Position numbers and translations under genes: made by a program. Under the pieces are notes generated by a model. It did no database searches and had not been told where the DNA came from. It saw only the letters and a program-made list of their open reading frames with translations. From an uncultured Gemmatimonadaceae bacterium (GTDB lineage Bacteria > Gemmatimonadota > Gemmatimonadetes > Gemmatimonadales > Gemmatimonadaceae): a stretch of DNA of 64,000 bases. Shown piece by piece: positions 9,112 to 27,783 of this stretch (position 1 is the first letter of the stretch; every line of letters starts with the position of its first letter). Location: contig CAVUDW010000002.1 in the NCBI GenBank assembly GCA_963740355.1, forward strand, positions 352,001-416,000. Reading direction: 5' to 3'.

Positions 9112-9298
9112 GAGAATGTGTAGACGATCAGGCGACTGGTGCGGAGCCCAAGCGGCGCGGAGTCTTGGTTGGATTTCAAGGGGTCAGAGTCCTTGAAAGT
9201 TCATGGGGACGGAGTCGTGCGGCGCAGTGAAGCAATCCGGCTCGCGCATTCTGACGTAGCTGGTGCGGATCTCCTTCTGGACCTCCTCACCGATTCGC

Positions 9299-10711
9299 AT
9301 GTCCGTTCCATTGCAGACTGGCCGACCGCCGCGGCGCGTTCTGAACGTCCTCGCCACCCCAGTGCGCGACGAATCACGGGCGCTGCTGGCGAAGAATTGG
9401 AACGCGATGCCCGAGGCGTTGCAGACCAAGCAGCAGATGCTCGGCGTCCAGGGAAACGGATGTGGAGCGACCATCGGCGCCATGCCACGCTGTGATTTCG
9501 CGTGCCGTGGATGCTACCTCGGCGAGGCCGCCAATCGCATTCCCGCTGAGCCCGTGGAAGCGATCATGGCTCAGATGGACGCGCTGCGACCGATCCTTGG
9601 GCCGGACGGGAACCTGCAACTGACCGATGGCGAAGTCACGCTGCGGCCGCCCGAGGAAGTCGTGAAGTTGTTGCAGCACGCGCACTCGCTCGAACTAGTG
9701 CCGATGCTGATGACGCATGGCGACTCCTTTCGTCGTCGGCCGGGGTTGCTCGAGCAGTACATGCTGGACGGCGAGTTGGTCGAGGTCAGCATCCATGTCG
9801 ATACCACGCAGCGCGGCCGCGTCGGTGCGGAGTACAAGGGGGCGACGTCAGAGGCGCAGCTCAATCCACTGCGCGACGAGTTCGTGCAGCTGCTCACCGA
9901 AGCGCAGTCGAAAACCGGTAAGCGCCTGCGAGCCGCCACAACCATGACAGTCACGCGCGACAACCTCAGTGGCGTGCATGATGTGATGCGCTGGATCACC
10001 GGAGGGCAGCGCGTCTTCCGAATGATCAGCTTCCAGCCGATCGCACAAGTTGGCCGCACCGAAGATGGTTTCGGTGGCGGAGTGACCGGCGAGGCACTCT
10101 GGTGGCGAATCGCGTTCGCGCTGACGGGCGGGAAGAAGGGCGCCGCCGAAGAGTTGCTCAAGTCGCAGGTCTGGTTCGGCCATCCGTCGTGCAACCGGAT
10201 CCTGCACGGTCTCGTTGCGCACCGTGACGGCGAGGCGCCGGCCTTCCACGCCCTGCGCCCGTCAGCCGATGCACCGCACGCCGACACCGTCGACGAGTTC
10301 TTCCGACGATTTGGCGGTGTGAGCTTCAAGACCGACACCACCCGTACTGCCATCGCCCGTGCACTCGGCATGGCACTGCGCGCGCCAGGTTTCGTTCTCG
10401 GTCGCCTGCCCGGCTACCTCTGGCACTGGCTCGAACGCCTCAGCCCCGGCTCGCCGCTTCAGGCGATTCGGGACCTGCTCAACGGCTCACTCAAGGTGCA
10501 GCCGCTGGTGATCGTGAGTCATCACTTCATGAGCAGCGCCGAGATCCACACCGACGAAGGGCAGGCACGCTTGGCGCAGTGTGTCTTTCACGTGCCGGTG
10601 AATGGCGAGCTGGTGTCGATGTGCGAGGTGAATGCGCTCGGGATTCGGGATCGGTACTACGCGGACCTCGTGGGCACGGCCTCCCGGTCCGACGTCGTTC
10701 CGTCCCTCTGA
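9299..10711 (+). CDS. Radical SAM protein (COG1964-like)
   Basis: CDFACRGC (CxxxCxxC), QLTDGEVTL, GHPSC, C-terminal CVF..VNGELVSMCEVN; start ATG 9299. Confidence 0.9.
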   Translation: MSVPLQTGRPPRRVLNVLATPVRDESRALLAKNWNAMPEALQTKQQMLGVQGNGCGATIGAMPRCDFACRGCYLGEAANRIPAEPVEAIMAQMDALRPILGPDGNLQLTDGEVTLRPPEEVVKLLQHAHSLELVPMLMTHGDSFRRRPGLLEQYMLDGELVEVSIHVDTTQRGRVGAEYKGATSEAQLNPLRDEFVQLLTEAQSKTGKRLRAATTMTVTRDNLSGVHDVMRWITGGQRVFRMISFQPIAQVGRTEDGFGGGVTGEALWWRIAFALTGGKKGAAEELLKSQVWFGHPSCNRILHGLVAHRDGEAPAFHALRPSADAPHADTVDEFFRRFGGVSFKTDTTRTAIARALGMALRAPGFVLGRLPGYLWHWLERLSPGSPLQAIRDLLNGSLKVQPLVIVSHHFMSSAEIHTDEGQARLAQCVFHVPVNGELVSMCEVNALGIRDRYYADLVGTASRSDVVPSL

Positions 10712-10719
10712 TCTCGAGC

Positions 10720-11130
10720 GAACTCCGTACCCCTGAGCTCAGGAACTCCGTCCCCCCAAACGTTCGCGATGCGACCGACGCGGCTGCGGTCGCACTCCGT
10801 GAGCTCCGTGGCCTCCCCCCTATTTGTTGTTCGCGTTGGTGCGCGTTGCAGCATTCGTTTGCAATCGCGAGGGAAGCAACTGCAATGAGGGGGAGGCCAC
10901 GGAGCTCACGGAGTGCTCCAATGGCAACCTTGGCCGCTTCCCCATCAATGGTGCTGGAAGGGAACGAGCCGGAGGGACTCCGTCCCCGTGAGCTCACAAG
11001 GACTCAGCCTGCATGAAAGCCCTGACCCTTTGAAAGTCCCGTGAAAAGCGAACTCTCCGCCGCCATAGGCGTCGCGTGCAGTCCTCCGCGACTCCGCGTC
11101 CCCCGCGGCTCCGCGTGAGGAAGTGTGGAC
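10720..11130. repeat. Cluster of REP-like repeats between convergent genes, including a perfect 28-bp inverted repeat
   Basis: gcactccgtgagctccgtggcctccccc (10792-10819) and its reverse complement (10889-10916); 10976-11037 and 11077-11130 are inverted copies of sequence upstream of the rSAM gene. Confidence 0.85.
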
Positions 11131-11174
11131 CAGCACCGCCACAGGCGTCCAGCGCCAGACGGCAGAACCCGTCG

Positions 11175-11990
11175 CTATCGAATCAGCCCCAGTCGCCGCC
11201 CGTTTGCCTGGCTGTTCAGGCTCCAGTCGTACTCCGTCTTCACGACCTTGTACTCCCCTGACTCCAGCAACGCCTTCTCGGCACCCGCAGGATAGTACCG
11301 CGCGATGAACCGCCCGACGCTTGCCTCACTGCCTCCGAAATCCTTCATGTAGTCGAGGAAGGAAAAGATCGGACTGCGATAGATCGTGCGATTCGCGACG
11401 TCCACGCGGTTCTTGGCCGGTGTTTGCGTGAGAAACCGCACCGCTTGCTCGTTCAGCTGCGCGTCGATGCGCGCGCCGGTGTAGGCCTCGCTGCGGAGCG
11501 GTGGGCAGCCAATCGCCGCACACACCAGCGCGAAGTGGATGCGCGGTTCCTTGAAGGTCGGGCGAATCGTACGCTGTTCGATGTCGTCCAGCGTGTACGT
11601 CTTGCCGCCCACCACGGCAAACGCTTCAGACCACGGACCCTTCAGGCGCAGAAGCCCCAGCGACTTGTTGATGTTCCGGATCGACTCGCGTTCGTTCTTG
11701 TTGTTGATCAACTGGATCGTGTACGCATTGTAGGCGTTGATCCAGAGTGCCAGTTGTTCGTTGCGCGGCAACGTGACCGGATTCGTCGCGGCCAGCAGTC
11801 GGAGATAGCCTGCGAAGGCCGGGTCAGCCTTGAATGCGTCGTAGTCCACCAGTCCGTTCACGACGTGGGCCTTCAGCAGTCGGTCAAACGCACTGTGGTC
11901 AACTGCCTGCGCATGCAGCAATGTGCTGGAAATCATCAGGACAGCGCCCGTCGCCAGCTGTCGTGCGACACGTGTGATGCGGAAAGTCAT
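11175..11990 (-). CDS. DUF547 domain secreted protein
   Basis: LALWINAYNAYT, PRIHFALVCAAIGCPPL, YDWSLN signatures; signal peptide; ATGA overlap with upstream stop. Confidence 0.92.
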   Translation of the reverse strand: MTFRITRVARQLATGAVLMISSTLLHAQAVDHSAFDRLLKAHVVNGLVDYDAFKADPAFAGYLRLLAATNPVTLPRNEQLALWINAYNAYTIQLINNKNERESIRNINKSLGLLRLKGPWSEAFAVVGGKTYTLDDIEQRTIRPTFKEPRIHFALVCAAIGCPPLRSEAYTGARIDAQLNEQAVRFLTQTPAKNRVDVANRTIYRSPIFSFLDYMKDFGGSEASVGRFIARYYPAGAEKALLESGEYKVVKTEYDWSLNSQANGRRLGLIR

Positions 11991-13492
11991 CTGAAGAGAG
12001 CGAAATAGCGAAGGAAAAGGTTCTTCACGAATGGCGTCAGCTTCGTACGGCGCCACGCATCTGCCACCTTGCGCAGCACTTCACCTTGTGTCGGATACGG
12101 ATGCATCGTCTTGCCGATCGCGCCGAGTCCGAGGCCGTTCGTCATGGCCAAAGTCACTTCGCTGATCATGTCACCCGCGTTCGGTGCCACGATCGTGGCA
12201 CCGACGATCTTGTCCGTTCCCTCGCGCACGTGCACGCGACAGAACCCTTGTGTCTCACCCTCGAGACGCGCCCGATCCACATCGTGCAGTGGTACCGTGA
12301 ACGTCTGGATCGGGACGCCCGCCTGCGCCGCACTCGCCGCGGTGTGGCCGACCTGCGCCAGCTCCGGTGAGGTATACGTCGCCCAGGGCGTGACCAGATT
12401 GCTCGCCTTGCCGCGGCCATAGAATAGCGCGTTCTGGATCACCATCCGCGCCTGAAAATCCGCCGCATGTGTGAATTGCAGCGGCGAGCAGACATCACCG
12501 ACGGCGTACACCCAGGAATTCGTGGTCTGGAGTCGCTCATTCACTGTCACCCCCTTCTTCGTGAAGGCGATTCCGGCGTGGTCGAGTCCGAGGTTTTCCA
12601 CATTTGGCTTGCGTCCGATCGCCACCAGCAGCGCATCGCCCACATGCGTGGTCTCGATGCCATCGCGCGTCGTGCGCACGCGAATTTCGCCACCCTGCTG
12701 TGAGACAGCCACGATTTCAGCGAGAGCGGAATAGCGGACCCCATCTTCGCTGAGTGCTTGCTGCACGATCAGCGCGGCGTCTTCGTCATCGCGCGGGAGC
12801 ACCCGTGGCCCCTTGTCGATCAGCGTCACCTGCGAGCCGAAACGGGCGAAACTCTGCGCCATCTCGCAGCCAATCGGGCCGGCACCAATCACCAGCAGTC
12901 GAGCTGGGAGCGCCGTGAGGTCGAAGATCGTTTCGTTCGTCAGGTACGGAACGGTTTCGAGCCCTGGGATCGGTGGCGCGGAGGCACGGGCGCCCGTTGC
13001 GATCACGGCGCGGCGGTACTTCAGCGTTGCCGCACCGACCGTAATTGCGGACGGGTTCATGAACGCGCCGTCGCCGAGGAATACGTCGACGCCCAGGTCA
13101 CGAAAGCGGGCCGCACTGTCGATCGGGCTCAGCTCACTCCGAATGCGCCGCATGCGATTCATCATCGTCTCGAAATCGCCGCGTGAGTCAGCCGCGATCG
13201 CGGGCCCGCCGAACTTCCCTGCCGCAGTGCGCGCCGTCGACCACGCGCGGGCCGCACTGATCAGCCCTTTGGACGGCACACAGCCGACGTTCAGGCAGTC
13301 GCCGCCCATCAGGTGCCGTTCGATCAGCGCGACCTTCGCGCCCAGTCCCGCGGCGCCGGCGGCCGATACCAGTCCACCGGTGCCGGCACCAATCACGACT
13401 AGATCGTAGTTCGGCGCTGGCTTGGGATTCACCCAGTCCGACGGATGCACCTGCGAGACCAGTTCGTGATCCCAATGATCGTGCTCGAGCAT
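11987..13492 (-). CDS. Pyridine nucleotide-disulfide oxidoreductase, MerA/lipoamide dehydrogenase-like (not a true MerA)
   Basis: GAGTGG, GGDCLNVGCVPSK, GAGPIG, HPYPTQGE; no N-terminal HMA domain or C-terminal Cys-Cys; start re-picked at 13492. Confidence 0.9.
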   Translation of the reverse strand: MLEHDHWDHELVSQVHPSDWVNPKPAPNYDLVVIGAGTGGLVSAAGAAGLGAKVALIERHLMGGDCLNVGCVPSKGLISAARAWSTARTAAGKFGGPAIAADSRGDFETMMNRMRRIRSELSPIDSAARFRDLGVDVFLGDGAFMNPSAITVGAATLKYRRAVIATGARASAPPIPGLETVPYLTNETIFDLTALPARLLVIGAGPIGCEMAQSFARFGSQVTLIDKGPRVLPRDDEDAALIVQQALSEDGVRYSALAEIVAVSQQGGEIRVRTTRDGIETTHVGDALLVAIGRKPNVENLGLDHAGIAFTKKGVTVNERLQTTNSWVYAVGDVCSPLQFTHAADFQARMVIQNALFYGRGKASNLVTPWATYTSPELAQVGHTAASAAQAGVPIQTFTVPLHDVDRARLEGETQGFCRVHVREGTDKIVGATIVAPNAGDMISEVTLAMTNGLGLGAIGKTMHPYPTQGEVLRKVADAWRRTKLTPFVKNLFLRYFALFR

Positions 13493-13523
13493 CTGCAGTC
13501 GGAGAAAAGGGAAAATCAGCTCG

Positions 13524-14300
13524 TCAGGTCGGGACTGATCCGTTCGCCGTCGCATCGGCCAATGCACGCTTGGCGAGACGCGTCACCAGGATCGTCACCG
13601 CAGCCGTAGCCGCAAGGCCGAGGCCAAGCACGGCGTAGAAGGCGGGCCCGCGCGCGGGAGCGGTGGTGCCCGCCGCGCCGACCACCACGCGCGCAACGTT
13701 CCCGGTGTACACGTAGAGCAGTGTACCGGGAATCATGCCGACGGATGCGACCAGGAAATCGGCCATGCGCACCCGTGTCAGCCCCAGTGCGTAGTTGAGC
13801 ACGTTGAAGGGAATCACCGGCGATAGGCGCAGGAGAAACACCACGCGGCGGCCTTGCTCCGCGATCGCACCGTCGATCGCCGCGAAGCGTGGATCGCGCT
13901 GGACACGCTCGGCGACCCAGTCGCGCGCCACGTAGCGTGCAATCAGGAAGGCTCCCAGAGCACCCAGCGACGCGCCCAGCAATACGAAAATGGTGCCTTT
14001 CACGACGCCGAACAGCGCACCAGCTGCCAACGTGAGGATGGAGGCTGGAACGAACGCGACGCAGGCCAGCGCATATCCCGCGATGAACACGACGGGTCCC
14101 CATGCGCCAAGCGCGTCCACTGCCGCCGTGAGGCGCGGCAGCTGCCCACTCAACTGCCGTCCCAGCAACACGAGGCCCACGACGACGAGCAGCGCTACGC
14201 CAACGCGCAGGATGGTCGCGCTTCGCGACGTCGGCGCGCCACCATCCGGTGTGCGATCCGTCGCCTTGTCGCGTGTGTTGCTGGTCGCTTTGTCAGTCAT
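13524..14300 (-). CDS. TVP38/TMEM64 (VTT domain, DedA superfamily) membrane protein
   Basis: FVPASILTLAAGALFG, LLRLSPVIPFNVLNYALGLT, GMIPGTLLYVYTG. Confidence 0.92.
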   Translation of the reverse strand: MTDKATSNTRDKATDRTPDGGAPTSRSATILRVGVALLVVVGLVLLGRQLSGQLPRLTAAVDALGAWGPVVFIAGYALACVAFVPASILTLAAGALFGVVKGTIFVLLGASLGALGAFLIARYVARDWVAERVQRDPRFAAIDGAIAEQGRRVVFLLRLSPVIPFNVLNYALGLTRVRMADFLVASVGMIPGTLLYVYTGNVARVVVGAAGTTAPARGPAFYAVLGLGLAATAAVTILVTRLAKRALADATANGSVPT

Positions 14301-14372
14301 CGGTCATCTGCCATGGGACGCCTGCATCATACGACGCGCCCGAAGGTTCGGATTGACCGACGGTACAGCCGG

Positions 14373-15158
14373 CTACGCGGACTGGGCGCCGAGCGAAAGC
14401 GGTTCACCGTTTGCGCCAAGCCCGAGCTCGACATGCAGGCGCTCCTTGGCCGCGGCAATCGCATCCCGCGTCCGATTCTTCAGCGTCGACAGGTCAGCCA
14501 GAGTTAGCCCGGTCGTCTCGATTGGTTCCAGTACCCGACAGATCGCACGCGTCTTCTGGAACTGGAACGTGTGCTTGGCCATCGCCCGACGGGTGCCCGC
14601 CACCACGATCGGCAGGATCGGAATGTTGTTCTCGATCGCCAGCCGGAAGGCGCCATCCTTGAACGGCAGCAGCTCGCCGTCAGGGGTCCGAGTCCCTTCA
14701 GGAAATATCATGACGCTCAAGCGGTGCTTCAGCTTGTCGCGGCAATCGTTCATTGCGGCCACGATGCTTTCGCGTGTGCCGCGCTTGACCGGGATGTCGC
14801 CGGCCAGCCACATCATCCAGCCAAGGAACGGAATCTTGAAGAGTTGCTCCTTCCCCAGCCACTTCATCTCCCACGGCAGGTGTGAGATCAGGAAGATGTC
14901 GGCGTAGCTCTCGTGATTCGACACGGCGACGTACGGCCGACGGGGATCCCGGATCCGGATCCCGTCGGTGCTGAACTTCCACAGCGGATTCAGAAAGACC
15001 GTGGTCGCGCCTACGAGGCGGAAGGTGCGACCCGCGATGTACCGGTCACGATCGAACGGTACGGTGACGATGAAGACCGCCAACACCACGAAAAACCCGA
15101 CGATGATCGCCGCGATGAGCACGACCCACGCATAGGCATTCAGGACTTTCTGGAGCAC
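14373..15158 (-). CDS. plsC: 1-acyl-sn-glycerol-3-phosphate acyltransferase (PlsC/LPLAT family)
   Basis: NHESYAD (NHx4D) and FPEGTR motifs; N-terminal TM helix. Confidence 0.85.
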   Translation of the reverse strand: MLQKVLNAYAWVVLIAAIIVGFFVVLAVFIVTVPFDRDRYIAGRTFRLVGATTVFLNPLWKFSTDGIRIRDPRRPYVAVSNHESYADIFLISHLPWEMKWLGKEQLFKIPFLGWMMWLAGDIPVKRGTRESIVAAMNDCRDKLKHRLSVMIFPEGTRTPDGELLPFKDGAFRLAIENNIPILPIVVAGTRRAMAKHTFQFQKTRAICRVLEPIETTGLTLADLSTLKNRTRDAIAAAKERLHVELGLGANGEPLSLGAQSA

Positions 15159-15161
15159 GGC

Positions 15162-15407
15162 TCAGCTGGCGGCAGGCGTGATGGGTGCGGGCGTGACCGG
15201 CGCACAGGTCCCGTCAAAACCATTCGTCCGGTGCGACCCGTCGCAGAACGGCTTGCGCTTGCTGTCGCCGCAACGGCACAGCGACACGTTCTTTCCTTCG
15301 GGCAGCGGGATGACGTTCCCTTCCGCGTCCGTGATCTGGATGGACTGTGCATCGGCCGCGGTGATCAGCAGCGACGCGTTGTTGTTGACCTTGATCGTGA
15401 TCGGCAT
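15162..15407 (-). CDS. CDGSH iron-sulfur domain protein
   Basis: LCRCGDSKRKPFCDGSH. Confidence 0.92.
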   Translation of the reverse strand: MPITIKVNNNASLLITAADAQSIQITDAEGNVIPLPEGKNVSLCRCGDSKRKPFCDGSHRTNGFDGTCAPVTPAPITPAAS

Positions 15408-15522
15408 CGGCAGGGCATGGGATGATACGGCAGGGGCGGAACGCCCACAGCACAGCAGAATAATGCCCGGGCCGCTGGACCGTCACCCACACCTGCCCCC
15501 TGAGCCGGTTACCGCCGAGTCC

Positions 15523-15963
15523 CTATGCGGCCTGGGCCAGCGCCGCGTGGCGCTTCAGGCGCTGCACCATCGCATTCAGGCCGACTTCGCGCCCGGCCAG
15601 CCCGATGTCGTGCATCAGCTGACGCACGATGTCGTTCGGGATCGCCAGCGTGACACTCGCGGGCTGCTCGTTCACCGCCTGGAAGAGGATCGCCAGCACC
15701 GCCGCCACCGTCGGTGATTCACGCACGTTCACATCGGCATAGAAGTGCAGCAGCCCATCATGCACTTCGGGAAAGAGGTCGACACGTGTCTGGCACTCGG
15801 CAACGGTGAATGCGGCGCGATCGAGGGCCGCCAAACGCGGCGGGAGCGGCTCGAGCTTTTTCGCGTACGCCACCAGGCTCGCCATCTTCTCTTCGCGTCC
15901 CATGGAGCGGAACCGGCCAAGCACGCGTTCGAGGGCTGGAGGGATCATCTCAGTCTGCGTCAT
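15523..15963 (-). CDS. sufE: SufE family sulfur-acceptor protein
   Basis: AKKLEPLP, ECQT active Cys, ESPTV pattern; size 146 aa. Confidence 0.75.
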   Translation of the reverse strand: MTQTEMIPPALERVLGRFRSMGREEKMASLVAYAKKLEPLPPRLAALDRAAFTVAECQTRVDLFPEVHDGLLHFYADVNVRESPTVAAVLAILFQAVNEQPASVTLAIPNDIVRQLMHDIGLAGREVGLNAMVQRLKRHAALAQAA

Positions 15964-16004
15964 CCCGAAAGCTACACACCACCGATAGCCATATTTCCCT
16001 CCCT

Positions 16005-17282: not shown

Positions 17283-17291
17283 ACCGCAACT

Positions 17292-17641
17292 GCGAATCGC
17301 GGAGGCGCAGAGACGCAGAGAACTGCAACGGCTGAACTGCTACTGCCTTATCGCAAAACAAACTTTTGGGTCCAGCAACAGCCGCAAGACTGCGAACGGC
17401 CGCAAAACTGCGTGCGTGGGCACCGGTGGTCGGTGAGCACATCGCCCTGACATTTTGTGGGAACAACTCGCCCACCGTTCTTCCGTTTTCAAGGTCCTTT
17501 ACCAAAGCTGTTGCAGTGGCCTTTGCAGTTCTCTGCGGCCTCTGCGCCCCTGCGATTCGCTGTGGCAGTTTTGCGGCTTCTGCAGTGTTGCGGCTGTTGC
17601 TGTACCCCAGAGCACTTTTGCGTCAAGGCAGTTACGCAGTT
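17292..17641. repeat. Interleaved double inverted repeat (A-B-A'-B') in convergent intergenic region
   Basis: A 17292-17328 pairs with 17523-17560; B 17335-17411 pairs with 17565-17641. Confidence 0.85.
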
Positions 17642-17658
17642 CCCCAGCTCACAGAGGA

Positions 17659-18684: not shown

Positions 18685-18794
18685 CCAGTTGGTGGTGCGT
18701 GGCGTAAGGAGGTGGGGCCGGGGAACCAATCACCGCGCCCGTGTCTTGTCGTGCCTCTGAGGAGGGCTCGCCCTCCAAACATATCTTCCTTGCG

Positions 18795-21479
18795 ATGCGC
18801 GCCCTCAATTTCGCTGCCCTCGCGGCACTGCTGGCCTCGCCGACGCTCCTGTCGGCGCAAGATTCCTCTCGCGTCCGTCCGGACAGCGTCACCTGCGTCC
18901 GGCGGCCAGCCACCGCGGGGTGCCGTCGCTTCCGTGACTCCACGGCGGCGCAGCTGTCGGTGGTCAGTGTGGTGGCCGATCAGCCGCGACGCCTGCTCAA
19001 TCGAAGCACGGCCACCGTTGGAGGCACCGTCGAGCGAAAGGAGCTGAACGCGCTCCCGACCGACTCCCGTGATCCAATTTCACTGGCCTTTTCGCTGCCG
19101 AACGTGGCGCAGGCCACCGGCTTCTTCGGTGACGCACCACGCCTCACGATCAACGGCAGCAATTCGCTCTACACCTCATACACCATCGATGGCCTCGAGA
19201 ACAACGAAGGGTTCCTCGGTGGTGCGCGCGTCGAACTGCCGCTGTCGGCGCTGGAGCGACTGAGCGTTGCCGCGAACACCTATGGCGCGGATATCGGCCG
19301 CAGCAGCAATGGCGTGGTCCAGTTCGAGACGCGATCCGGCAAGGCGAAGTGGGGCGGCGAGGCGTTCGCCTACAACCGCCCCGGTGTGCCATTCGATGCT
19401 CGTGCCAAGATCGTGCCCGGCGGCAACGCCGACGCCTTCAACAAGGCGCAGGATGGCTTCCGTCGCACGCAGGTCGGCGCGGCGGGCGGCGGGCCGTTGG
19501 TGAAGGATCGCACCTTCGTCTTCGGTGCGCTGGAATACACGAACGAAAACGAGGATCGCATCGCGAGCACCACCAGCGTGCCGTTCGTTGGTCGTGAGTT
19601 GCGCCAGATCTGGAAGGCCTTCGGTCGTCTCGATCAGGGCCTCGGCAATGCCGGCAGCCTGACGGCGAAGTTTGCGCTCACCAGTACCGATCGGGCGGGT
19701 CAGGGTAGTGGTATCCTCGCGCCCGAGGCAGACACGCGCACGCAGCGCATCGGCTCACTGAGCAGCGTTACACATCGCGCCTCGCTGAGCAATGGCCGCG
19801 CCAGCCAGGTCACCTCGCTGCAGTTCGGCACCTTCCGCTGGAACTTCCCGCCGACGCGCAGCAGCTTCAGCATCCCGCAAGTGACGATCGTCGCCAACGA
19901 TCCGGCGCGACCGGGCAACACGATCACGCAGGCCATTGTCGGCAGCAGCAACTTCGTCTTCGACGAGTCGGAGCGTCAGTTCCAGTTGCGCACCGAGCAT
20001 CGACGCGAGCTGGGCGCGAAGAACACGATCAGCACCGGCGTCGACATTGCTCGCAGTGCCTTCGAGCTGACGGGGTCCAACACCAATCCGATCGGCAGCT
20101 ACACCGTGCTGAATACCGGGAACATCAACCCGGCGGCGGGACGGTTCTACACTTACGGCGACATCCCGCAGGATGTACAGGTGCTTCGCTACAGCATCGA
20201 TGCCCGGCAGAAGCAGGTAAACCTGTCGCAGCTGCTGACCAGCGCCTGGTTCGAGGATCGGTTCACGCCAACCTCCGAGCTCACGATCAACGCCGGCCTG
20301 CGCTGGGACTACGATGATCTGACGTCTCGTGGTGAGAGCAAGCCTGACCTGAACAATTTTCAGCCGCGCGTCTCGATCAACTGGACGCCCACCGATCGTT
20401 CGGTGCTGCGCGTTGGTGCCGGTCGCTACACGGGCAAGTTTCCCTACACGATTTATTCCGACGCGGTGCAGTTCGGCCCCGATGGCAACGCCACCATCAC
20501 ACTCGACGGCGCACAGGCTCCAGCCTTCGGCCAGGGGCCGCGTGGCGAGTCGCTGGCCGCGCAGTCGAGCACGTTCCCGCCGCGCGAGATCCGGCGACTC
20601 TTCGCGCTTGGTCTCGAGCAGCCATACAGCGACCAGGTCAGCCTCGGCTTCCAGTATCAGGTCACGCCAGCGGTTGGCATCACTGTCGACGCGGTTGCCA
20701 CGCAGACGAACAACCTCCCGCTATCGTGGGACCTGAATGCGAATACCCGCGGTATCCGTCCCGGCGATGTGACGTCCGTCCCGGTCTCCGAGGGTGACAC
20801 GTTCCGCCCCGTGGCTCCTGTCGCCGGCAGCTATCGCCGCCTGACCACATCAGCGTCGCGAGGTGAAGCGAACTACATCGGCCTCACCACCGCACTTCGC
20901 TGGCAGCCGGAGCGCACCATTCTGCTCGACGCGAACTACACAGTGAGCCGCTCGCGGAACAACACCGAGGACATCAACTTCAACGCCACGCAAGGCAACA
21001 ACTTCGATGCCGAGTGGGCGGATGCGGTCAATGATCGCCGCCACAAGTTGTCGCTGCGTGCGGTGTACACTGGCATTCGTCGACTCTCGCTGAGCACCGT
21101 GTTCGACGTGCAGTCGGGCACTCCAATCAACCGCATTGCCGGCTTCTGCGGCGCATCGTACTGCGACCTCGATGGCTCCGGCGATACATTCGGCAACGGC
21201 TTCCTCGGCAACCAGGATCGTTTCTTTGGCGTTGCGCGCAATGGCGAACGGTTGCCGGCAGCGACGCTCGTGAACCTTGGTGCTGGTTATGAGCTTGGCC
21301 CGGTGCAGCTGCGCGCGGACCTGTTCAATGCCTTCAACACCCGCAATGTGAGTGGCTACGCGAATGGACTTCCTGGTGGTGGTGCGCGGACACAGGTGGG
21401 CCGGCCGGGTGATCCGGTCGTATTCCCGAGTGCGGCGCCAGCCCGTCAGGTGCAGTTCTCCGCCCGTTATGCATTCTGA
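18795..21479 (+). CDS. TonB-dependent outer-membrane receptor (Oar-like)
   Basis: Signal peptide, plug YTIDGLENN..YGADIGR, LTINAGLRWDY, NNFQPRVS, DLFNAFN, C-terminal ARYAF. Confidence 0.9.
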   Translation: MRALNFAALAALLASPTLLSAQDSSRVRPDSVTCVRRPATAGCRRFRDSTAAQLSVVSVVADQPRRLLNRSTATVGGTVERKELNALPTDSRDPISLAFSLPNVAQATGFFGDAPRLTINGSNSLYTSYTIDGLENNEGFLGGARVELPLSALERLSVAANTYGADIGRSSNGVVQFETRSGKAKWGGEAFAYNRPGVPFDARAKIVPGGNADAFNKAQDGFRRTQVGAAGGGPLVKDRTFVFGALEYTNENEDRIASTTSVPFVGRELRQIWKAFGRLDQGLGNAGSLTAKFALTSTDRAGQGSGILAPEADTRTQRIGSLSSVTHRASLSNGRASQVTSLQFGTFRWNFPPTRSSFSIPQVTIVANDPARPGNTITQAIVGSSNFVFDESERQFQLRTEHRRELGAKNTISTGVDIARSAFELTGSNTNPIGSYTVLNTGNINPAAGRFYTYGDIPQDVQVLRYSIDARQKQVNLSQLLTSAWFEDRFTPTSELTINAGLRWDYDDLTSRGESKPDLNNFQPRVSINWTPTDRSVLRVGAGRYTGKFPYTIYSDAVQFGPDGNATITLDGAQAPAFGQGPRGESLAAQSSTFPPREIRRLFALGLEQPYSDQVSLGFQYQVTPAVGITVDAVATQTNNLPLSWDLNANTRGIRPGDVTSVPVSEGDTFRPVAPVAGSYRRLTTSASRGEANYIGLTTALRWQPERTILLDANYTVSRSRNNTEDINFNATQGNNFDAEWADAVNDRRHKLSLRAVYTGIRRLSLSTVFDVQSGTPINRIAGFCGASYCDLDGSGDTFGNGFLGNQDRFFGVARNGERLPAATLVNLGAGYELGPVQLRADLFNAFNTRNVSGYANGLPGGGARTQVGRPGDPVVFPSAAPARQVQFSARYAF

Positions 21480-22710
21480 CAGGTCGACCGTGGCAGGACG
21501 GCGCGCATCACTCGCCGTCCTGCTAGCGGTCGCGGTGGCGTTCGGATGTGCACGAACGGCGCCCGCCGTCACCGCCGCCGAACTCGCACGACTCCCGTGG
21601 GACAGTGTCGTGGCACGGGCGCGCGGCACCGCGGTCGTCTGGCGGATGTGGCGTGGTGATCCATCCGTCAATGCCTACGTGGACAAGTGGGTCGCGCCGC
21701 GATTGCAGGCAGAATTCGGCATCACGCTGCAAGCGGTGAGCGGGCAGGGCAATGAATTGGTGGACCAGCTCACCGTGGAGCGAGAGTCGGGTGCGCGCAC
21801 TGGCACCGCGAGCCTGATGTGGATCAACGGTGAGACCTTCAGTGCGATGCGCAGTCGGCAGCTGCTCGCAGGTCCGTGGAGTGGGTCACTTCCCGCGGGC
21901 GCAGCCGTCGATAGTTCATCGCCGATCATCAGTCGAGACTTCGAGCAGGACCCGGCCGGGTTCGAGTCGCCGTGGGGCACGGTGCAGTTGGCGCTGATCT
22001 ACGACAGCGCGCGCACACCGCTACCGCCACGCTCCGTGGCCGAACTCACGAGCTGGATCCGGGCACATCCCGGTCGATTCACGTATGACCAGAGTTTCGC
22101 AGGCACCACGTTCCTCAAAGGAATGCTCTATTCGCTGAACGGCGGCGTGGAGACCTACCAGGGCGGCTTCGATTCCACGAAGTATCTGGCGGGTCGCGCT
22201 CGTCTTTTCGCGCTGCTCGATTCATTGAAGCCGTCGCTTTGGCGCAAGGGCACACAGTATCCCGCCGACGTCGCGGCGCTGCACCGCCTCTTCGCGAACA
22301 AGGAGGTCGACTTCACACTCTCCAACAACCAGAACGAGGCGGTGACGAAGGCGATGCAAGGTGTGTTGCCCCCCACTAGCCGTGCCCTCGTGTTGCGGGA
22401 TGGCACGATCGCCAACGCCCACTTTCTCGGCATTCCGTTCAATGCGCCGAATGCTGCCGGCGCCATGGTGGTGGCGAACTTTCTGCTCTCCCCCGCCGCG
22501 CAGTTGGAGAAGCAGCGTCCGACGGTCTGGGCCGACGGCACCGTCCTCAGCCTGTCGCGACTCCCGGCGGAATGGAAGCTGCGATTCGACTCTGTCGTGA
22601 ATGATCCGCGGCTGGTGCCCGCCGATTCCCTGCGGCGATATGCGCGGCCGGAAGTCTCGCCGCGGTATCACGAGCGGTTGCAGGATGACTGGCGCCGGAT
22701 GATCCGCTGA
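21469..22710 (+). CDS. ynjB: ABC transporter substrate-binding lipoprotein, YnjB-like
   Basis: Lipobox AFGC; WINGETF, ESPWG, HPGRFTY, GTTFLK, HFLGIPFNA..AGAMVVANFLLSP.AQ characteristic of YnjB. Confidence 0.8.
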   Translation: MHSDRSTVAGRRASLAVLLAVAVAFGCARTAPAVTAAELARLPWDSVVARARGTAVVWRMWRGDPSVNAYVDKWVAPRLQAEFGITLQAVSGQGNELVDQLTVERESGARTGTASLMWINGETFSAMRSRQLLAGPWSGSLPAGAAVDSSSPIISRDFEQDPAGFESPWGTVQLALIYDSARTPLPPRSVAELTSWIRAHPGRFTYDQSFAGTTFLKGMLYSLNGGVETYQGGFDSTKYLAGRARLFALLDSLKPSLWRKGTQYPADVAALHRLFANKEVDFTLSNNQNEAVTKAMQGVLPPTSRALVLRDGTIANAHFLGIPFNAPNAAGAMVVANFLLSPAAQLEKQRPTVWADGTVLSLSRLPAEWKLRFDSVVNDPRLVPADSLRRYARPEVSPRYHERLQDDWRRMIR

Positions 22711-22768
22711 TCGTGTCGAAACGACAGGCACGATTGCGCTCGGGACTCGCGCTATCCACTCTCCGCGT

Positions 22769-23659
22769 GTGAACTCCGCTCGCTCATCATCCCGTCACGC
22801 TGCCCCGTACGCTGGCTCACGCCGCGGACGCGAGCGTGTCGCCAGCGTGTTGCCCGTTGCAGCCGCAGCCGCGATCCTCGGCGTGCCGCTCGTGATTGGT
22901 GTCGGCTACCTGGTCGCGGGAGCGCTCGGCCTGATAGGTGATGCGACGCCGGGTGCGCTGGGCCGCGTACTGGGCGACGGGCAGGTGCTGCGCTCTGCGA
23001 TGCTGTCGCTCTGGATCTCGACGGTGGGAACGGGCGTCGCACTCGTCGGTGCCGTCATCATCTCCCTCAGTTTCTCCCGCGCGAGCGCACTCGATCGTGC
23101 GGCTCGATTCATCGCCACCCTGCCGCTGCCGGTGCCGACGGTCGCCGCGTCGGTCGCAATACTGCTGCTGCTGTCGCAGAGTGGCTGGCTATCGCGCGTC
23201 GCAACGCAGCTCCAGCTGACTCGTGTGCCGGCCGATTTTCCCGCACTGGTTCAGGATCCCTGGGCCCTCGGTGTGATCGTGGCTGTGGTCTGGAAGGAAT
23301 TGCCATTCCTGCTGCTCGTATCGCTGTCGTTGTTATCACTACGCGGCCCTGCGCTGTCGGATGCCGCTCGGACACTCGGCGCCTCGCCGTGGCAGGTGCT
23401 GCGCACCATCACGCTGCCGTTGCTCCTGCGTGGACTGGCACCGAGTGTCATTGCAGTGTTCGTGTTCGTGCTTGGCTCGCTCGAGCTTCCGTTGGTGTTG
23501 GCGCCCAGCTCACCGCTCGCGTTGCCGATGCTGATCCAGGAACGTCGACAGGCGCTCGATGCCCAGTCGCATGGCGAAGCGTATCTGGTCGCGCTGATGG
23601 CAACGATCCTTGCGATGATTGCCGTGGCGGCACACGAATGGCTCCGGGACGACGCATGA
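22769..23659 (+). CDS. ABC transporter permease (YnjC N-half-like)
   Basis: LLLLSQSGWLSR, WKELPF, EAA-like loop DAARTLGAS; start uncertain. Confidence 0.85.
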   Translation: MNSARSSSRHAAPYAGSRRGRERVASVLPVAAAAAILGVPLVIGVGYLVAGALGLIGDATPGALGRVLGDGQVLRSAMLSLWISTVGTGVALVGAVIISLSFSRASALDRAARFIATLPLPVPTVAASVAILLLLSQSGWLSRVATQLQLTRVPADFPALVQDPWALGVIVAVVWKELPFLLLVSLSLLSLRGPALSDAARTLGASPWQVLRTITLPLLLRGLAPSVIAVFVFVLGSLELPLVLAPSSPLALPMLIQERRQALDAQSHGEAYLVALMATILAMIAVAAHEWLRDDA

Positions 23660-24450
23660 CGCATCGGTCACCGTTGCCGCGCGTTGCCCTCTTCGTGGTG
23701 CTGACGCTTTTCGCGATTGCACCACTGCTGCTGTTGATCGTCACGTCCGTGGCACGCGGTTGGTTCTATCCTGCCATCGCACCGGCGGCAATCGATTTCA
23801 GCGCGTGGCGGGAACTGTTTTCAGAGCCCGCGCACCGGGGTGCATTGCTCAACAGCGTGATCCTTGGTGTCGCGACGGCCATCGCAGCCACGATGTGTGC
23901 CCTGCCGCTCGGGCGAACCGCGGCGCGCGGCGCACGCAGCACGAGGCGCGCCGTGGCCGTGCTGGCGTTTGCAGCGGTGGCCATGCCGCCGGTCGCCCTT
24001 GGCGTGGGCCTGCAGTTGACCGTGCTCACGCTTGGACTCGGCGGTTCGCTGGGCGGTGTCTTCCTCGCGCACCTGGTGCCAACGCTGGGGTATCTCACGC
24101 TGATCTTCCTTGGCGTGTTCACGCAGTGGGACGGCCGACTCGAGGAAGCTGCAGCGACCCTCGGTGCAACGGGCGTCAACCGCTGGCGCTACGTGTTGTT
24201 GCCGTTGCTCCGCCGACCGATCGTCGAGGCCCTCGCACTCGGTTTCCTCGTCAGCTGGGCGCAGGTTGCGTTGACCCTGCTGGTTGGTGGCGGTGCCGTG
24301 CGCACACTGCCGTTGGATGTGCTGGCACTGCTGCAGGCGGGTCAGGATCAGCGAGCCGCCGCGGGGGCGCTGGCGCTGGCGATTCCGGCGCTGATTGTCG
24401 TCAGCATCTCGCGGATCGCCGCGCGCGGCACCGCAGCGGTGGCGGCGTGA
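23656..24450 (+). CDS. ABC transporter permease (YnjC C-half-like)
   Basis: EEAAATLGA loop, GWFYP, TLLVGGG; ATGA overlap with upstream gene. Confidence 0.85.
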   Translation: MTHRSPLPRVALFVVLTLFAIAPLLLLIVTSVARGWFYPAIAPAAIDFSAWRELFSEPAHRGALLNSVILGVATAIAATMCALPLGRTAARGARSTRRAVAVLAFAAVAMPPVALGVGLQLTVLTLGLGGSLGGVFLAHLVPTLGYLTLIFLGVFTQWDGRLEEAAATLGATGVNRWRYVLLPLLRRPIVEALALGFLVSWAQVALTLLVGGGAVRTLPLDVLALLQAGQDQRAAAGALALAIPALIVVSISRIAARGTAAVAA

Positions 24451-25484
24451 CATCGACACTCGAGGTGACAGGCCTACGCGTCGATTTCGGCGAGCGCGTC
24501 GGTTTGCGCGACGTCTCGTTCGCGGTCGAAGCCGGTGACTGCCTCGCGGTGCTCGGTGTCTCGGGCTCCGGCAAGTCATCGCTGTTGCGAACGCTGGCCG
24601 GACTGCAGGCCGCATCGGCGGGGCGAATCGTGGTGAAGGGCCGCGACGTGACGACGCTGCCACCGGAACGGCGAAGTATCGTCTATCTGCATCAGGAACC
24701 GGTGCTGTTCCCGCATCGGACAGTGCTCGAGAATGTCGCGTTTCCGCTGCTGGTGCGGGGTGTCGCGCCCGGCGAGGCCCGCGCTTCCGCACACACCTGG
24801 CTCACGCGTTTGCAGGTCGATGAGCTGGCGGCACGTTCCACGGACGCGGTGAGCGGCGGTCAACGGCATCGCATCGCGTTAGCACGTGCCCTCTGTGCCG
24901 AGCCTGACGTGTTGCTGCTCGATGAACCACTGGCATCGCTGGATCCCGCCATTCGCCGCGATGTGCGCGAGGCGCTGCTCGCTGCGCGCGCGGCCAGCGG
25001 TGCAGCGATGCTGCTCGTGACCCATGACCTGGATGATGCCCTCGCAATTGCGAGTCACATCTCGACCATCGACGGGTCATCGCTCTCGGCGGCGAAAGCG
25101 CCAGCGGAACTCCTGCGCTCGCCGCCGTCGCTGGAAACGGCTCGACTCCTGGGCGTATATGCAGAGATCCATGGCACGGTGTCCGATGACAGTTCGGAGT
25201 TGTTCTACTGGATTGGCGGCGCGATTCCCGCCGCGGGTGTTCCGTCAGGCGCCACCGTCGCGTGTGTGCGCGCGCATGAAGTCAGCGTGCGGCCTGGCGC
25301 TGCGCTCTCGGCCCCGCTGCTGACGGTGGCTGAACGCCGCGACGGTGCACACGAATCGCTGCTGACCGTGCGCACTGATAGTGGCGAGACCGCCACGGTC
25401 CGAGTCGGCAGCGGCGTCGCGGTAACACCTGGCGACGTGATCCAGCTCGCGATCACGCAGGCGCGTTTCTTCACCCCCGACTGA
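24447..25484 (+). CDS. ABC transporter ATP-binding protein (YnjD/PotA-like)
   Basis: GVSGSGKS Walker A, VSGGQ signature, LLLDEP Walker B, VTHD; GTGA overlap. Confidence 0.92.
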   Translation: MTSTLEVTGLRVDFGERVGLRDVSFAVEAGDCLAVLGVSGSGKSSLLRTLAGLQAASAGRIVVKGRDVTTLPPERRSIVYLHQEPVLFPHRTVLENVAFPLLVRGVAPGEARASAHTWLTRLQVDELAARSTDAVSGGQRHRIALARALCAEPDVLLLDEPLASLDPAIRRDVREALLAARAASGAAMLLVTHDLDDALAIASHISTIDGSSLSAAKAPAELLRSPPSLETARLLGVYAEIHGTVSDDSSELFYWIGGAIPAAGVPSGATVACVRAHEVSVRPGAALSAPLLTVAERRDGAHESLLTVRTDSGETATVRVGSGVAVTPGDVIQLAITQARFFTPD

Positions 25485-25490
25485 CGTCCC

Positions 25491-26096
25491 GTGTTCGATC
25501 ACTTGCTCCGTGGCCTGAAGGATCGATTGCTGGCGCCGCTCGCCATGCTGTTGCGCGGTGTCCCGCCGAACCTGTTGTCGGTCGTGGCACTGGCATTTGG
25601 CCTCGGCGCCGCCGTAGCTGCCTCGCGGGCGGCGTGGGGGGTGGGACTGGCGCTCTGGCTCACGAACAGGATCATCGATGGCCTCGACGGCACAGTGGCC
25701 CGGGTGGCGGAACGGCAGACTGATTTCGGCGGTTATCTGGACATTCTGCTGGATTTCGTCGTCTATGCCGCAGTCCCGGTCGGTCTGGCAATCCAATCGA
25801 CCGATCGCGTCGTTTTGCTATGGACGGCGGCCATGGAAGGCGCCTTCTTCGTCAACGCCTGCAGCTGGATGTACCTCTCGGCCGTATTGGAGAAACGCGC
25901 ATCCGGTGCGCAGGCGACTGGCGAACTCACGACAGTGACCATGCCGGCCGCACTGGTGGCCGGTTTTGAGACGGTGGTGTTTTACGCGTTGTTTTTCCTC
26001 TTCCCGGCGAAGCTGGCGCTGCTGTTCGGCATCATGACGACGCTGGTGGGTATCAACATCCTTCAGCGCCTCGTCTGGGCTCGCCGAGTGTTGTAG
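25491..26096 (+). CDS. ynjF: CDP-alcohol phosphatidyltransferase family protein, YnjF-like
   Basis: DGLDGTVAR....TDFGGYLDILLD matches the DGxxARx8Gx3Dx3D motif. Confidence 0.85.
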   Translation: MFDHLLRGLKDRLLAPLAMLLRGVPPNLLSVVALAFGLGAAVAASRAAWGVGLALWLTNRIIDGLDGTVARVAERQTDFGGYLDILLDFVVYAAVPVGLAIQSTDRVVLLWTAAMEGAFFVNACSWMYLSAVLEKRASGAQATGELTTVTMPAALVAGFETVVFYALFFLFPAKLALLFGIMTTLVGINILQRLVWARRVL

Positions 26097-26188
26097 CCTT
26101 CTCGACCGCAGGTTCGTGCACTTGCTGTACACCCGCCGGCTCTTCGCCGCAGGTCGCTGTTCACGACTCACTTTCCACCGCTGTCGCC

Positions 26189-27115
26189 ATGCTGATCCGC
26201 AACCGAATCGAGCCGCCGTCCTCCGAGATCACGCCGGAGATCGACTACCTCAACCGCCGCCAGTTCCTTGGCATGGTTGGCAGCATTGGTGCGATCACGG
26301 CCACCGGCGCACTGGTCGAAGCGGCGATGGGCGGGCTCCACCCAGTAGGCGCACAGCAGGCGGAGGAGGTGACCGATGAGGACAAGGTCACCAGCTACAA
26401 CAACTACTATGAGTTCGGCACCGACAAGGAAGATCCGAAGGCCAACTCGCAGCAGTTCCGCACCCGCCCGTGGAGCGTGAAGGTCGAAGGGATGTGCAAG
26501 AAGCCCGGCAACATGCCGCTCGATGACTTCCTCAAGCCGAGTAGGATCGAGGATCGGACGTATCGTTTTCGGTGCGTCGAAGCGTGGAGCGCGGTGATTC
26601 CGTGGCGTGGCATTCCGCTGGCGGATGTCATTCGTCGCGCTGATCCGCTGCCGTCGGCCAGGTTCGTCGAGTTCACCACGCTCTACGATCCGGCCCAGAT
26701 GCCAGGGCAGCGTCGCGCCACGATCGCCTGGCCGTACATCGAAGGGTTGCGCCTCGATGAAGCGCTCAATCCGCTCGCCTTCCTTGCCACCGGCATGTAC
26801 GGCAAGACGCTGCCGAACCAGAATGGCGCGCCGCTGCGACTGGTCGTGCCGTGGAAGTACGGCTTCAAGAACATCAAGGCGATCGTGAAGATGAAGTTCA
26901 CCGACAAGCCGGCCAACACGACCTGGATGCAGGCTGCGCCGGATGAATACGGCTTCTATGCCAACGTGAATCCCACGGTCGATCATCCGCGCTGGAGCCA
27001 GGCGCGTGATCGCAAGCTGGGTGACATCCTGCGCAAGCCGACGCCGATGTTCAACGGCTACGAGGCCCAGGTGGCGTCGATGTACAGCGGCATGGACCTG
27101 CGTCGGAATTTCTGA
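26189..27115 (+). CDS. msrP: Protein-methionine-sulfoxide reductase catalytic subunit MsrP
   Basis: Tat motif NRRQFL, YNNYYEFG, FRCVEAWS, NGAPLRLVVPWKYGFK, HPRWSQA. Confidence 0.96.
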   Translation: MLIRNRIEPPSSEITPEIDYLNRRQFLGMVGSIGAITATGALVEAAMGGLHPVGAQQAEEVTDEDKVTSYNNYYEFGTDKEDPKANSQQFRTRPWSVKVEGMCKKPGNMPLDDFLKPSRIEDRTYRFRCVEAWSAVIPWRGIPLADVIRRADPLPSARFVEFTTLYDPAQMPGQRRATIAWPYIEGLRLDEALNPLAFLATGMYGKTLPNQNGAPLRLVVPWKYGFKNIKAIVKMKFTDKPANTTWMQAAPDEYGFYANVNPTVDHPRWSQARDRKLGDILRKPTPMFNGYEAQVASMYSGMDLRRNF

Positions 27116-27138
27116 CACCTGCTGATCTCGACCGTCGC

Positions 27139-27783
27139 ATGACTTCCGCTGTCGCCGCTCCCGCGCGGGCACGTCCGCGCGGCCCGCGCATCGGTCGTGC
27201 GTTGAAGCCGGTGGTGTTCCTCGCGCTGCTCGCGCCAGCCGTGTGGCTCGCGTACGCACTCGTCACGGGCCAGATCGATGGTGACGTGGTGAAGATCCTC
27301 GAGATCAACACCGGAACGCTGGCGTTGCGCAGCCTCGCCTACACGCTCGCCATCACGCCACTGCGACAGCTCACCGGGTGGGCGTGGCTCGCGACGTACC
27401 GCCGCATGCTGGGCCTGTTCGTGTTCTTCTACGCCACCGTGCACATGGTGGTGTATTTCGGGCTCGATCTCGAACTGCGTTTCGGCGAGATCTGGACCAG
27501 CATCGTGAAACGGCCGTACATCACGATCGGCATGATCAGCTGGTTGATCCTCGTGCCACTCGCGATCACCTCGCCGAATGCGATCGCGAAGAAACTCGGT
27601 GGTGTGAAGTGGAAGCGGTTGCATCAGCTGACGTACGTCGTCGCGATCACCGCCACCACGCACTACCTGTGGGCGGTGAAGAAGGACACCTTCTGGCCGC
27701 TGGTCTACTTCGCGCTCTTCGCCGCGCTCCTTGGTGTGCGCGCAGTGCAGTGGCAGCGGAAGCGGCGCCTGCAGTCGCGCTGA
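27139..27783 (+). CDS. msrQ: Heme-binding membrane subunit MsrQ
   Basis: LAITPLR, RRMLGL..FFYATVH, KRPYITIG, WKRLHQLTY; follows msrP. Confidence 0.93.
   Translation: MTSAVAAPARARPRGPRIGRALKPVVFLALLAPAVWLAYALVTGQIDGDVVKILEINTGTLALRSLAYTLAITPLRQLTGWAWLATYRRMLGLFVFFYATVHMVVYFGLDLELRFGEIWTSIVKRPYITIGMISWLILVPLAITSPNAIAKKLGGVKWKRLHQLTYVVAITATTHYLWAVKKDTFWPLVYFALFAALLGVRAVQWQRKRRLQSR

Follow-up and report, generated by a model that had tools for sequence, protein, structure and literature searches.

A Gemmatimonadaceae locus joins relatives of the Escherichia coli ynj genes to a VTT-reductase pair, DUF547 and a radical SAM enzyme: evidence for a recurring modular membrane system

In Escherichia coli K-12, the genes ydjX-ydjY-ydjZ-ynjA-ynjB-ynjC-ynjD-ynjE form a row to which ynjF is convergent. 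Phosphatidylcholine synthase, a CDP-alcohol phosphatidyltransferase, condenses imported choline with CDP-diacylglycerol. In the literature searched, we found no study that assigns a function to ynjF or ynjB, to DUF547 or to TIGR0428x/arsenosugar phospholipid; there the E. coli ydj/ynj locus, the fusions of VTT proteins with reductases, and DUF547 are three orphans without an assigned function. In a survey of the COG0398 family (DedA/TVP38), the fusion of a VTT domain with a reductase (PF07992 + PF02852) is named as the commonest one, a function as undecaprenyl-phosphate flippase is considered unlikely and a role as phospholipid scramblase is suggested (Todor et al., 2023, mBio, PMC10127716). 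The archaeal tetraether lipid synthase GDGT-MAS is described as binding phospholipids in hydrophobic pockets and as coupling lipid tails via a carbon-sulfur cluster intermediate (Lloyd et al., 2022, PMC9433317). Here we analyse a stretch of 64,000 nucleotides from an uncultured Gemmatimonadaceae bacterium (referred to as the window; G+C about 65%). It contains a core of seven families: a TonB-dependent receptor, a YnjBCD-type importer, YnjF, a VTT protein, a disulfide reductase, an exported DUF547 protein and an enzyme of the radical SAM (S-adenosylmethionine) type.

Two proteins of the window are reciprocal best matches of E. coli proteins: the substrate-binding protein, with 36% identity to YnjB (E 6e-55), and the CDP-alcohol phosphotransferase, which along its full length shares 30% of its residues with YnjF (E 3e-14). 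The VTT protein shares 34% identity with YdjX (E 7e-25) and the ATPase 35% with YnjD. When E. coli YdjX, YdjZ, YnjB, YnjC and YnjF were compared with the whole genome, the window genes were the only or the best matches, and YnjF had a single match at E < 1e-4, the window gene. The window YnjF has a length of about 200 residues and an intact motif DG-x2-DG-x2-AR-x8-G-x3-D-x3-D. Together with a second Gemmatimonadota subtype, which we call YnjF2, and the E. coli protein it forms a set with mutual identities of 30-35% over the full length; the remaining CDP-OH transferases of the genome match these types around the motif alone. A sequence search with YnjB against solved structures gave no match.

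Gene calls were taken from the open reading frame listing and from profile scans of the window proteins (Table 1). The genes are arranged in two tightly packed strings, one on the minus strand from SufE to DUF547 and one on the plus strand from the receptor to YnjF. They are separated by a glycosyltransferase gene (GT1, plus strand) and an MscS-type channel gene (minus strand). The ATG of DUF547 overlaps the stop codon of the reductase gene (ATGA).

The prevalence of the core genes was determined in 301 evenly drawn Gemmatimonadota genomes. YnjF-type genes occur in 19 of them (a count that includes the unpublished genome G072), 10 at E < 1e-50, with the window genome included, and nine belonging to YnjF2. 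The radical SAM enzyme was found in 10 genomes and DUF547 in 98. Around eight YnjF orthologues, up to 40 kb per locus were searched with the window proteins. Receptor and YnjBCD are present in seven of the eight loci (exception G299), as is the reductase (exception G117); VTT is present in five and DUF547 in three, while the radical SAM gene occurs in one, from the same-genus genome G005, with a layout identical to that of the window. The eight loci display six gene orders. In G205, the genes run in a single direction as VTT > reductase > receptor > YnjBCD > YnjF, and in G130 and G171 the order is YnjF > receptor > YnjBCD > reductase. G112 has a divergent DUF547-VTT pair facing reductase-receptor-YnjBCD-YnjF, and in G299 DUF547 > VTT faces reductase > YnjF, the importer being absent.

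Near YnjF2, the receptor is located directly upstream in all nine loci and an SSF symporter is also found in all nine, YnjBCD in none; reductase and VTT are each present in seven and DUF547 in six. Relatives of the receptor directly adjoin YnjF-type genes in seven of the eight plus nine of the nine Gemmatimonadota loci. For the radical SAM enzyme, one genome per species was scanned and the best 80 of 394 loci were analysed, several of them from the same genomes as the YnjF loci, and the two sets overlap. Eight of the 80 loci, all outside the genus of the window, have the order receptor > YnjF2 > radical SAM facing DUF547 < reductase < VTT, which is the full core minus YnjBCD, with the SSF symporter instead. 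All seven families together were found in no genome outside the window's genus among those compared here. Subsets of the core also exist in Acidobacteriota, Planctomycetota, Methylococcales, Alphaproteobacteria (including plasmids) and E. coli. The clustering exceeds what is expected by chance, since in other genomes the core genes have relatives that stand together in eight or more distinct gene orders. The sequence-only reading, an earlier interpretation of this stretch as an import and lipid-modification pathway, had made its proposal depend on co-occurrence or synteny outside close relatives, and synteny is present in other Gemmatimonadota, in other phyla and in E. coli. Identities, packing, co-localisation and fusions were observed directly, and they support the view that receptor/YnjBCD, YnjF, VTT-reductase, DUF547 and radical SAM enzyme are one recurring modular system.

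Twelve plasmid records contain a YnjF-like gene, five of which were inspected. The Paracoccus aestuarii plasmid has the order VTT::reductase > YnjF > binding protein > permease > ATPase. On the plasmid of Sphingopyxis sp. FD7, a VTT::reductase fusion, a DoxX-like and a thioredoxin gene are accompanied by receptor > CNT/NupC-type nucleoside transporter > YnjF > AhpD-like; the receptor is 34% identical to that of the window (E 7e-125) and the transporter has all three Pfam domains of its family. The Roseivivax plasmid (L133, NZ_CP045361.1, 73531-82129) carries PqiA-PqiA-PqiB-PqiC > YnjF > YnjBCD on the same strand, and the Qingshengfaniella plasmid YnjF > YnjBCD. The Sinorhizobium meliloti plasmid has an isolated partial YnjF-like match. 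The inner-membrane importer beside the pair of receptor and YnjF is thus of three unrelated kinds: ABC, SSF or CNT. As the kind of importer varies and the association with YnjF persists, we argue that the imported compound is the substrate of YnjF; the variety of importers also narrows the candidate substrates.

The radical SAM protein of the window stays below the PF04055 cut-off of 29.5 bits. Its CxxxCxxC motif (C29, C33, C36) is invariant in an alignment of 24 family members, and so are four further cysteines, C19, C262, C392 and C406. Among 1.84 billion representative proteins, the family has 507 matches at E <= 1e-3, of which 102 reach E <= 1e-30. The profile of the 24 members matches GDGT-MAS (PDB 7tol) over nearly the whole length with E 3.3e-24. 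A structure model (pLDDT 91.9) led in a Foldseek search to 7tom (E 4.5e-15, TMq 0.61, 457 columns), and the next match, SkfB, comprised the radical SAM core only (TMq 0.36). C262, C392 and C406 align with cysteines of the C-terminal part of GDGT-MAS (7tol); a nearly invariant His aligns at its labile Met439 if a tag offset of 20 residues is assumed. Judged by profile and predicted structure, the enzyme is a full-length distant relative of GDGT-MAS. It had already been described as unlike ArsS from the letters of the stretch, and we agree: the family differs, and the best TIGR04167 score in the genome is 40.7 bits (cut-off 300).

A DUF547 gene is present no more than 1.5 kb from the radical SAM gene in 43 of the 51 loci of Gemmatimonadota other than close relatives; for Acidobacteriota, Planctomycetota, Methylococcales and Alphaproteobacteria combined, the figure is 15 of 16. 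The loci lacking it are mostly short contigs. A natural fusion unites radical SAM and DUF547 parts with a hydrophobic membrane or lipobox-like segment between them, and another has a thioredoxin-like domain ahead of the radical SAM part. In G255 (C54:20708-21981, L024), the matches to the radical SAM enzyme and to DUF547 are both split in two, and the former is interrupted by two in-frame TGA codons; gene decay, an error in the sequence or recoding could be the cause.

The amino terminus of the DUF547 protein resembles a signal peptide, and several homologues have a lipobox. C157 and C162 (CxxxxC) are invariant in 12 sequences; the other invariant positions are Asn/Tyr, Arg/His and Tyr/Asp. 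The gene is single copy in the genome. The DUF547 profile had no match among PDB sequences. With a model of pLDDT 87.6, no solved relative was found by Foldseek (best E 0.88) or VIA-align (best Z 4.8 in 48,161 chains), and an ESM Atlas search for look-alikes gave no usable match. A relationship with E. coli YdjY was rejected, the hhalign probability being 0.4%. The reductase has the redox site CLNVGC and a conserved C-terminal tail without Cys. The gene had been called MerA-like; an identity with MerA was rejected, as TIGR02053 gives 379 bits against a cut-off of 454 and the C-terminal Cys pair is missing. Fused VTT::reductase proteins are encoded in loci of Acidobacteriota and Methylococcaceae as well as on the Paracoccus and Sphingopyxis plasmids.

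The best explanation overall, which we put forward tentatively and judge to fall just short of probable, is a composite membrane system made of three recurring modules. That the three modules are functionally linked is in itself highly probable; the mechanism as written in the following is distinctly more doubtful. In the first module, the TonB receptor, YnjB and the YnjC/YnjD ABC importer would take up a scarce polar compound, and YnjF would link it by a phosphodiester bond with a partner activated by CDP, for which CDP-diacylglycerol is the likeliest candidate, so that a rare phospholipid results. In the second, the VTT protein may shift this lipid between the membrane leaflets, and the reductase may keep a redox-active group of the lipid reduced at the cytoplasmic face. 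In the third, the exported DUF547 protein and the cytoplasmic radical SAM enzyme would share a target embedded in the membrane, each working on it from its own side. What is imported, which lipid is formed, its flipping and the target of reduction are inferred; the product is possibly a redox-active lipid made from an imported alcohol, and it may contain S, Se or As and may be nucleoside-like.

Several observations weigh against the composite system. Of the solved structures, DIPPS (4mnd, E 6.6e-5) comes nearest to YnjF, and the phosphodiester that it produces is soluble. The radical SAM enzyme is no Tes orthologue (NF045702, 32.3 bits against a cut-off of 450), and the N-terminal rubredoxin and [4Fe-4S]N domains of GDGT-MAS are absent: the alignment starts at chain residue 110, and the window protein has 28 residues upstream of the radical SAM motif. 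E. coli, used as a control, lacks DUF547, and no reductase gene was seen in its ydj/ynj locus. Five genomes of other phyla contain the pair of radical SAM and DUF547 without a YnjF orthologue (E <= 1e-8). In G117 the YnjF operon is 2.5 Mb away from a cluster of radical SAM, DUF547, VTT and reductase genes. DUF547 is much commoner than its partners (98 genomes versus 19 with YnjF and 10 with the radical SAM enzyme, of 301), and the counts overstate independence because many of the compared genomes are kin.

The position of the radical SAM gene also belongs to these counterarguments, as in the genus of the window it is outside the operon, convergent (tail to tail) with DUF547 and flanked by repeats. 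In the repeat-rich interval downstream (10712-11174), a 125-nt hairpin element (10792-10916) has 175 blastn matches in the genome and a 59-nt element (11077-11135) has 90; both look like dispersed repeats of the REP/MITE type. Upstream (8740-9136), a 24-bp unit is repeated five times (8875-9024) and followed by a 17-bp tandem repeat (9025-9113). The convergent orientation together with dispersed repeats around the gene fits a local rearrangement, and the flanking repeats may account for the fact that, in this genus, the radical SAM gene is inverted with respect to DUF547.

The strongest competitor, which we consider unlikely, is that two or three separate functions share an 'envelope stress' neighbourhood and are co-localised through shared regulation only. 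Receptor and YnjBCD would then take up some common nutrient resembling an amine, a phosphonate or thiamine, VTT, reductase and DUF547 would serve thiol homeostasis in periplasm and membrane, and the radical SAM enzyme would have a substrate of its own. Permease and ATPase are indeed closest to importers for 2-aminoethylphosphonate, polyamines and thiamine, and the modules lie apart in many genomes, G117 among them. DoxX/MauE, thioredoxin, AhpD-like and ECF-sigma genes are frequent neighbours, with MsrPQ and MsrA genes near some loci. However, YnjF keeps an importer through the change between ABC, SSF and CNT types, VTT-reductase is inside the YnjF operon in Paracoccus (fused) and in G205, and the same families come together in the various gene orders described above.

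A variant of the arsenosugar-type pathways for organoarsenicals or organoselenium, in which the Tes-like radical SAM enzyme replaces ArsS, is somewhat less probable again. Here YnjF would place a ribose- or nucleoside-derived arsenical, either scavenged or made by the cell, on a phosphatidyl group, with a product akin to an arsenosugar phospholipid, and the thiols of reductase and DUF547 would handle the metalloid. The recurrence of such gene sets beside arsenosugar-type clusters had been suggested before, and in other genomes the radical SAM gene does lie beside TIGR04283 genes (270, 205 and 197 bits, cut-off 182) or a TIGR04282 gene (148 bits, cut-off 134); once it is fused to a TIGR04283 glycosyltransferase (227 bits, cut-off 182). 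Its neighbours also include an AhpD-like protein that narrowly misses the TIGR04169 cut-off (117 bits against 120), and MauE/DoxX proteins recur around the family. An ArsR-family regulator gene precedes the receptor in three loci, and the genome has arsM. A nucleoside-hydrolase-like gene is located directly 3' of the radical SAM gene in seven loci from three phyla (L097:11337-12155, L103, L110, L088, L099, L020 and L081), and two of them (L088, L099) have an MTR-kinase-like gene. The CNT transporter between the Sphingopyxis receptor and YnjF, taken together with these accessory genes, would suit a compound derived from ribose or a nucleoside, and the set is similar to that which accompanies ArsS.

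Against this variant, the genome lacks arsS, none of its genes exceeds the selD cut-off, its arsM is on another contig (C3) and ArsM-like genes were found in only four of the loci searched. The window lacks the TIGR04282/TIGR04283 transferases, and the 'arsenosugar' names of these TIGR families are based on co-occurrence, not on assays. The nucleosidase and the kinase could serve plain salvage of 5'-deoxyadenosine. Further, GDGT-MAS chemistry is hydrogen abstraction, not adenosyl transfer (PMC9433317). As a side observation on the surroundings of the radical SAM family, nine loci (L061:6010-6681, minus strand; L024, L027, L064, L068, L071, L074, L085 and L092) have a gene weakly resembling PrdB/GrdF, a selenoprotein-type reductase subunit (64 bits, cut-off 300), which is placed in the interval from YnjF2 to the radical SAM gene or close by; the window does not have it.

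There is a small chance that the modules produce a redox carrier anchored in a lipid and put it to use. YnjF would form a phospholipid head group from a compound that is scavenged, that may derive from a nucleoside or ribose and that may bear S, Se or As. The radical SAM enzyme would alter the lipid, VTT-reductase would reduce it inside and flip it, and DUF547 would use it outside. If true, this would mean lipid-mediated transport of reducing power or of a chalcogen or metalloid across the inner membrane, and would give a function to the E. coli ynj genes, the DedA proteins of COG0398 and DUF547.

We regard it as very unlikely that YnjF, like DIPP synthase, yields a phosphodiester that is soluble (for instance a modified nucleoside phosphate or a compatible solute) rather than a lipid. 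Besides the match to DIPPS, the best curated models for YnjF are inositol-phosphate transferases, all far below cut-off (the PIP/archaetidylinositol-phosphate synthase models NF045883 and NF040950 score 32/170 and 53/180 bits). On the other hand, no cytidylyltransferase gene was seen in the clusters viewed, and the constant partners are of membrane or lipid type (VTT, the GDGT-MAS-like enzyme and, in Roseivivax, the Pqi genes). A DsbD-like electron relay from the reductase via VTT cysteines to periplasmic DUF547, suggested by an operon that combines a reductase of the cytoplasm with a membrane protein and an exported protein bearing CxxxxC, is rejected as scarcely credible because VTT has no invariant Cys in an alignment of six sequences that includes fused forms.

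The further genes of the region are lineage-specific neighbours, not conserved parts of the system: PlsC, CDGSH, SufE, GT1, MscS and MsrPQ. PlsC and SufE lie beside the module in four loci of close relatives and in none of 67 other loci, and tblastn with CDGSH and GT1 matched solely close-relative loci (L002, L036, L038, L044 and L045). MscS adjoins the module in close relatives only, and the same holds for an SDR gene and MsrPQ, which follow it. PlsC, CDGSH, SufE and GT1 had been included in the sequence-only reading, which the comparison does not support. A role of SufE as dedicated sulfur donor is weakened since it is the only SufE of the genome; the PlsC-type gene is one of four. MsrP and MsrQ are adjacent, both score above equivalog cut-offs, and they are a separate known system. 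The gap from YnjF to MsrP is 92 bp on the same strand, an arrangement otherwise found only in G005.

Open reading frames and family scans recovered every gene that the sequence-only reading had named. Its inventory omitted the MscS gene (17659-18729) and MsrPQ, and position 27783, where its interval ends, is the end of MsrQ, not of YnjF; YnjF extends from 25491 to 26096. An Rfam scan of positions 7000-30000 (E <= 0.1) gave no match and no riboswitch. A promoter scan revealed no sigma-70-like site, and terminator-like sites numbered 9 against 11.6 expected. In seven related loci, Rfam identified only one tRNA and one TPP riboswitch, and no riboswitch of the module. The TPP riboswitch (67 bits; L068:3275-3377, minus strand) is located before thiC beside the SSF symporter and belongs to thiC. 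The region is flanked on one side by a gene for an 852-residue DUF4953 Met-zincin (2970-5528, minus strand) and on the other by that for a 937-residue Ser/Thr protein kinase with PD40 repeats (31416-34229, minus strand), a similar kinase being found near the module in L091.

Table 1. Genes and repeat elements of the analysed region, with positions in the window.
Feature	Position	Strand	Evidence or remark
Radical SAM enzyme, distant relative of GDGT-MAS/Tes	9407..10711 (open reading frame open from 9263)	+	PF04055 27 bits
Dispersed repeat elements between radical SAM and DUF547 genes	10792..11135		blastn vs genome
DUF547, exported, invariant CxxxxC	11175..11990	-	PF04784 99.2 bits
Class I flavoprotein (FAD) disulfide reductase	11987..13567, likely start 13492 or 13555	-	NF004991 733 bits, cut-off 620
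VTT/TVP38-type membrane protein, YdjX/YdjZ relative	13524..14300	-	PF09335 97.3 bits
PlsC-type acyltransferase	14373..15158	-	PF01553 105.6 bits, TIGR00530 109 bits
CDGSH iron-sulfur protein	15162..15407	-	PF09360 57.4 bits
SufE sulfur acceptor, probably housekeeping	15523..15963	-	PF02657 58.7 bits
GT1 (MGT/EryCIII-like) glycosyltransferase	~16005..17282	+	PF03033 53 bits, PF06722 52 bits
MscS-type mechanosensitive channel, divergent from receptor gene	17659..18729	-	PF00924 58.9 bits
TonB-dependent outer-membrane receptor	18741..21479, likely start 18795	+	PF25183, PF00593, PF07715
YnjB-type substrate-binding lipoprotein, lipobox	21352..22710, likely start ~21469	+	NF008633 396 bits, cut-off 203
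ABC permease, first half of E. coli YnjC	22769..23659	+	PF00528
ABC permease, second half of E. coli YnjC	23656..24450	+	start overlaps preceding permease stop codon
ABC ATPase, YnjD-like	24447..25484	+	PF00005 115 bits
YnjF-type CDP-alcohol phosphotransferase	25491..26096	+	PF01066 42.9 bits, cut-off 22
MsrP, periplasmic methionine-sulfoxide reductase	26189..27115	+	NF003767 439 bits, cut-off 207
MsrQ, haem subunit partner of MsrP	27139..27783	+	NF003831 179 bits, cut-off 130

Taken as a composite system of three modules, the locus can be set against those already described. The neighbourhoods of ArsM/ArsS arsenosugar genes share with those of this radical SAM family elsewhere the TIGR04282, TIGR04283, AhpD-like, VTT-reductase and DUF547 genes. 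They differ in the radical SAM family, and the only glycosyltransferase of the window, which is without the two TIGR families, is of the GT1/MGT type. Phosphatidylcholine synthase follows the logic proposed here for YnjF, the condensation of an imported alcohol with CDP-diacylglycerol, but belongs to a different subfamily of the CDP-alcohol phosphatidyltransferases and is not known to have reductase, VTT or radical SAM partners.

In E. coli ydj/ynj, YnjB, YnjC, YnjF and a TVP38-type VTT protein are reciprocal best matches with the window genes and YnjD is also matched. No match to YdjY, YnjA (AhpD-like) or YnjE (rhodanese) was found among the window proteins; YdjY and YnjA have none in the whole genome, and the best YnjE-like matches are elsewhere in it. 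In the window, by contrast with E. coli, the first gene of the operon codes for an outer-membrane receptor, two genes correspond to YnjC, and YnjF is co-directional and last in the operon instead of convergent. The window has a single VTT gene, which shares an operon of its own with reductase and DUF547 at a distance of about 11 kb from YnjF, and a radical SAM gene is next door.

With the COG0398 fusions, the window shares the pairing of VTT and reductase, here as separate adjacent genes; the passages of PMC10127716 at hand do not link these fusions to YnjF, importers, DUF547 or radical SAM enzymes. With GDGT-MAS/Tes (MJ0619; 7tol, 7tom), the window enzyme appears to have the fold in common over the full length, and the radical SAM motif too, whereas it is bacterial and paired with DUF547. 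The window unites the three orphans, the ydj/ynj genes, the VTT-reductase pair and DUF547, with a relative of the archaeal tetraether lipid synthase, and the link holds across phyla.

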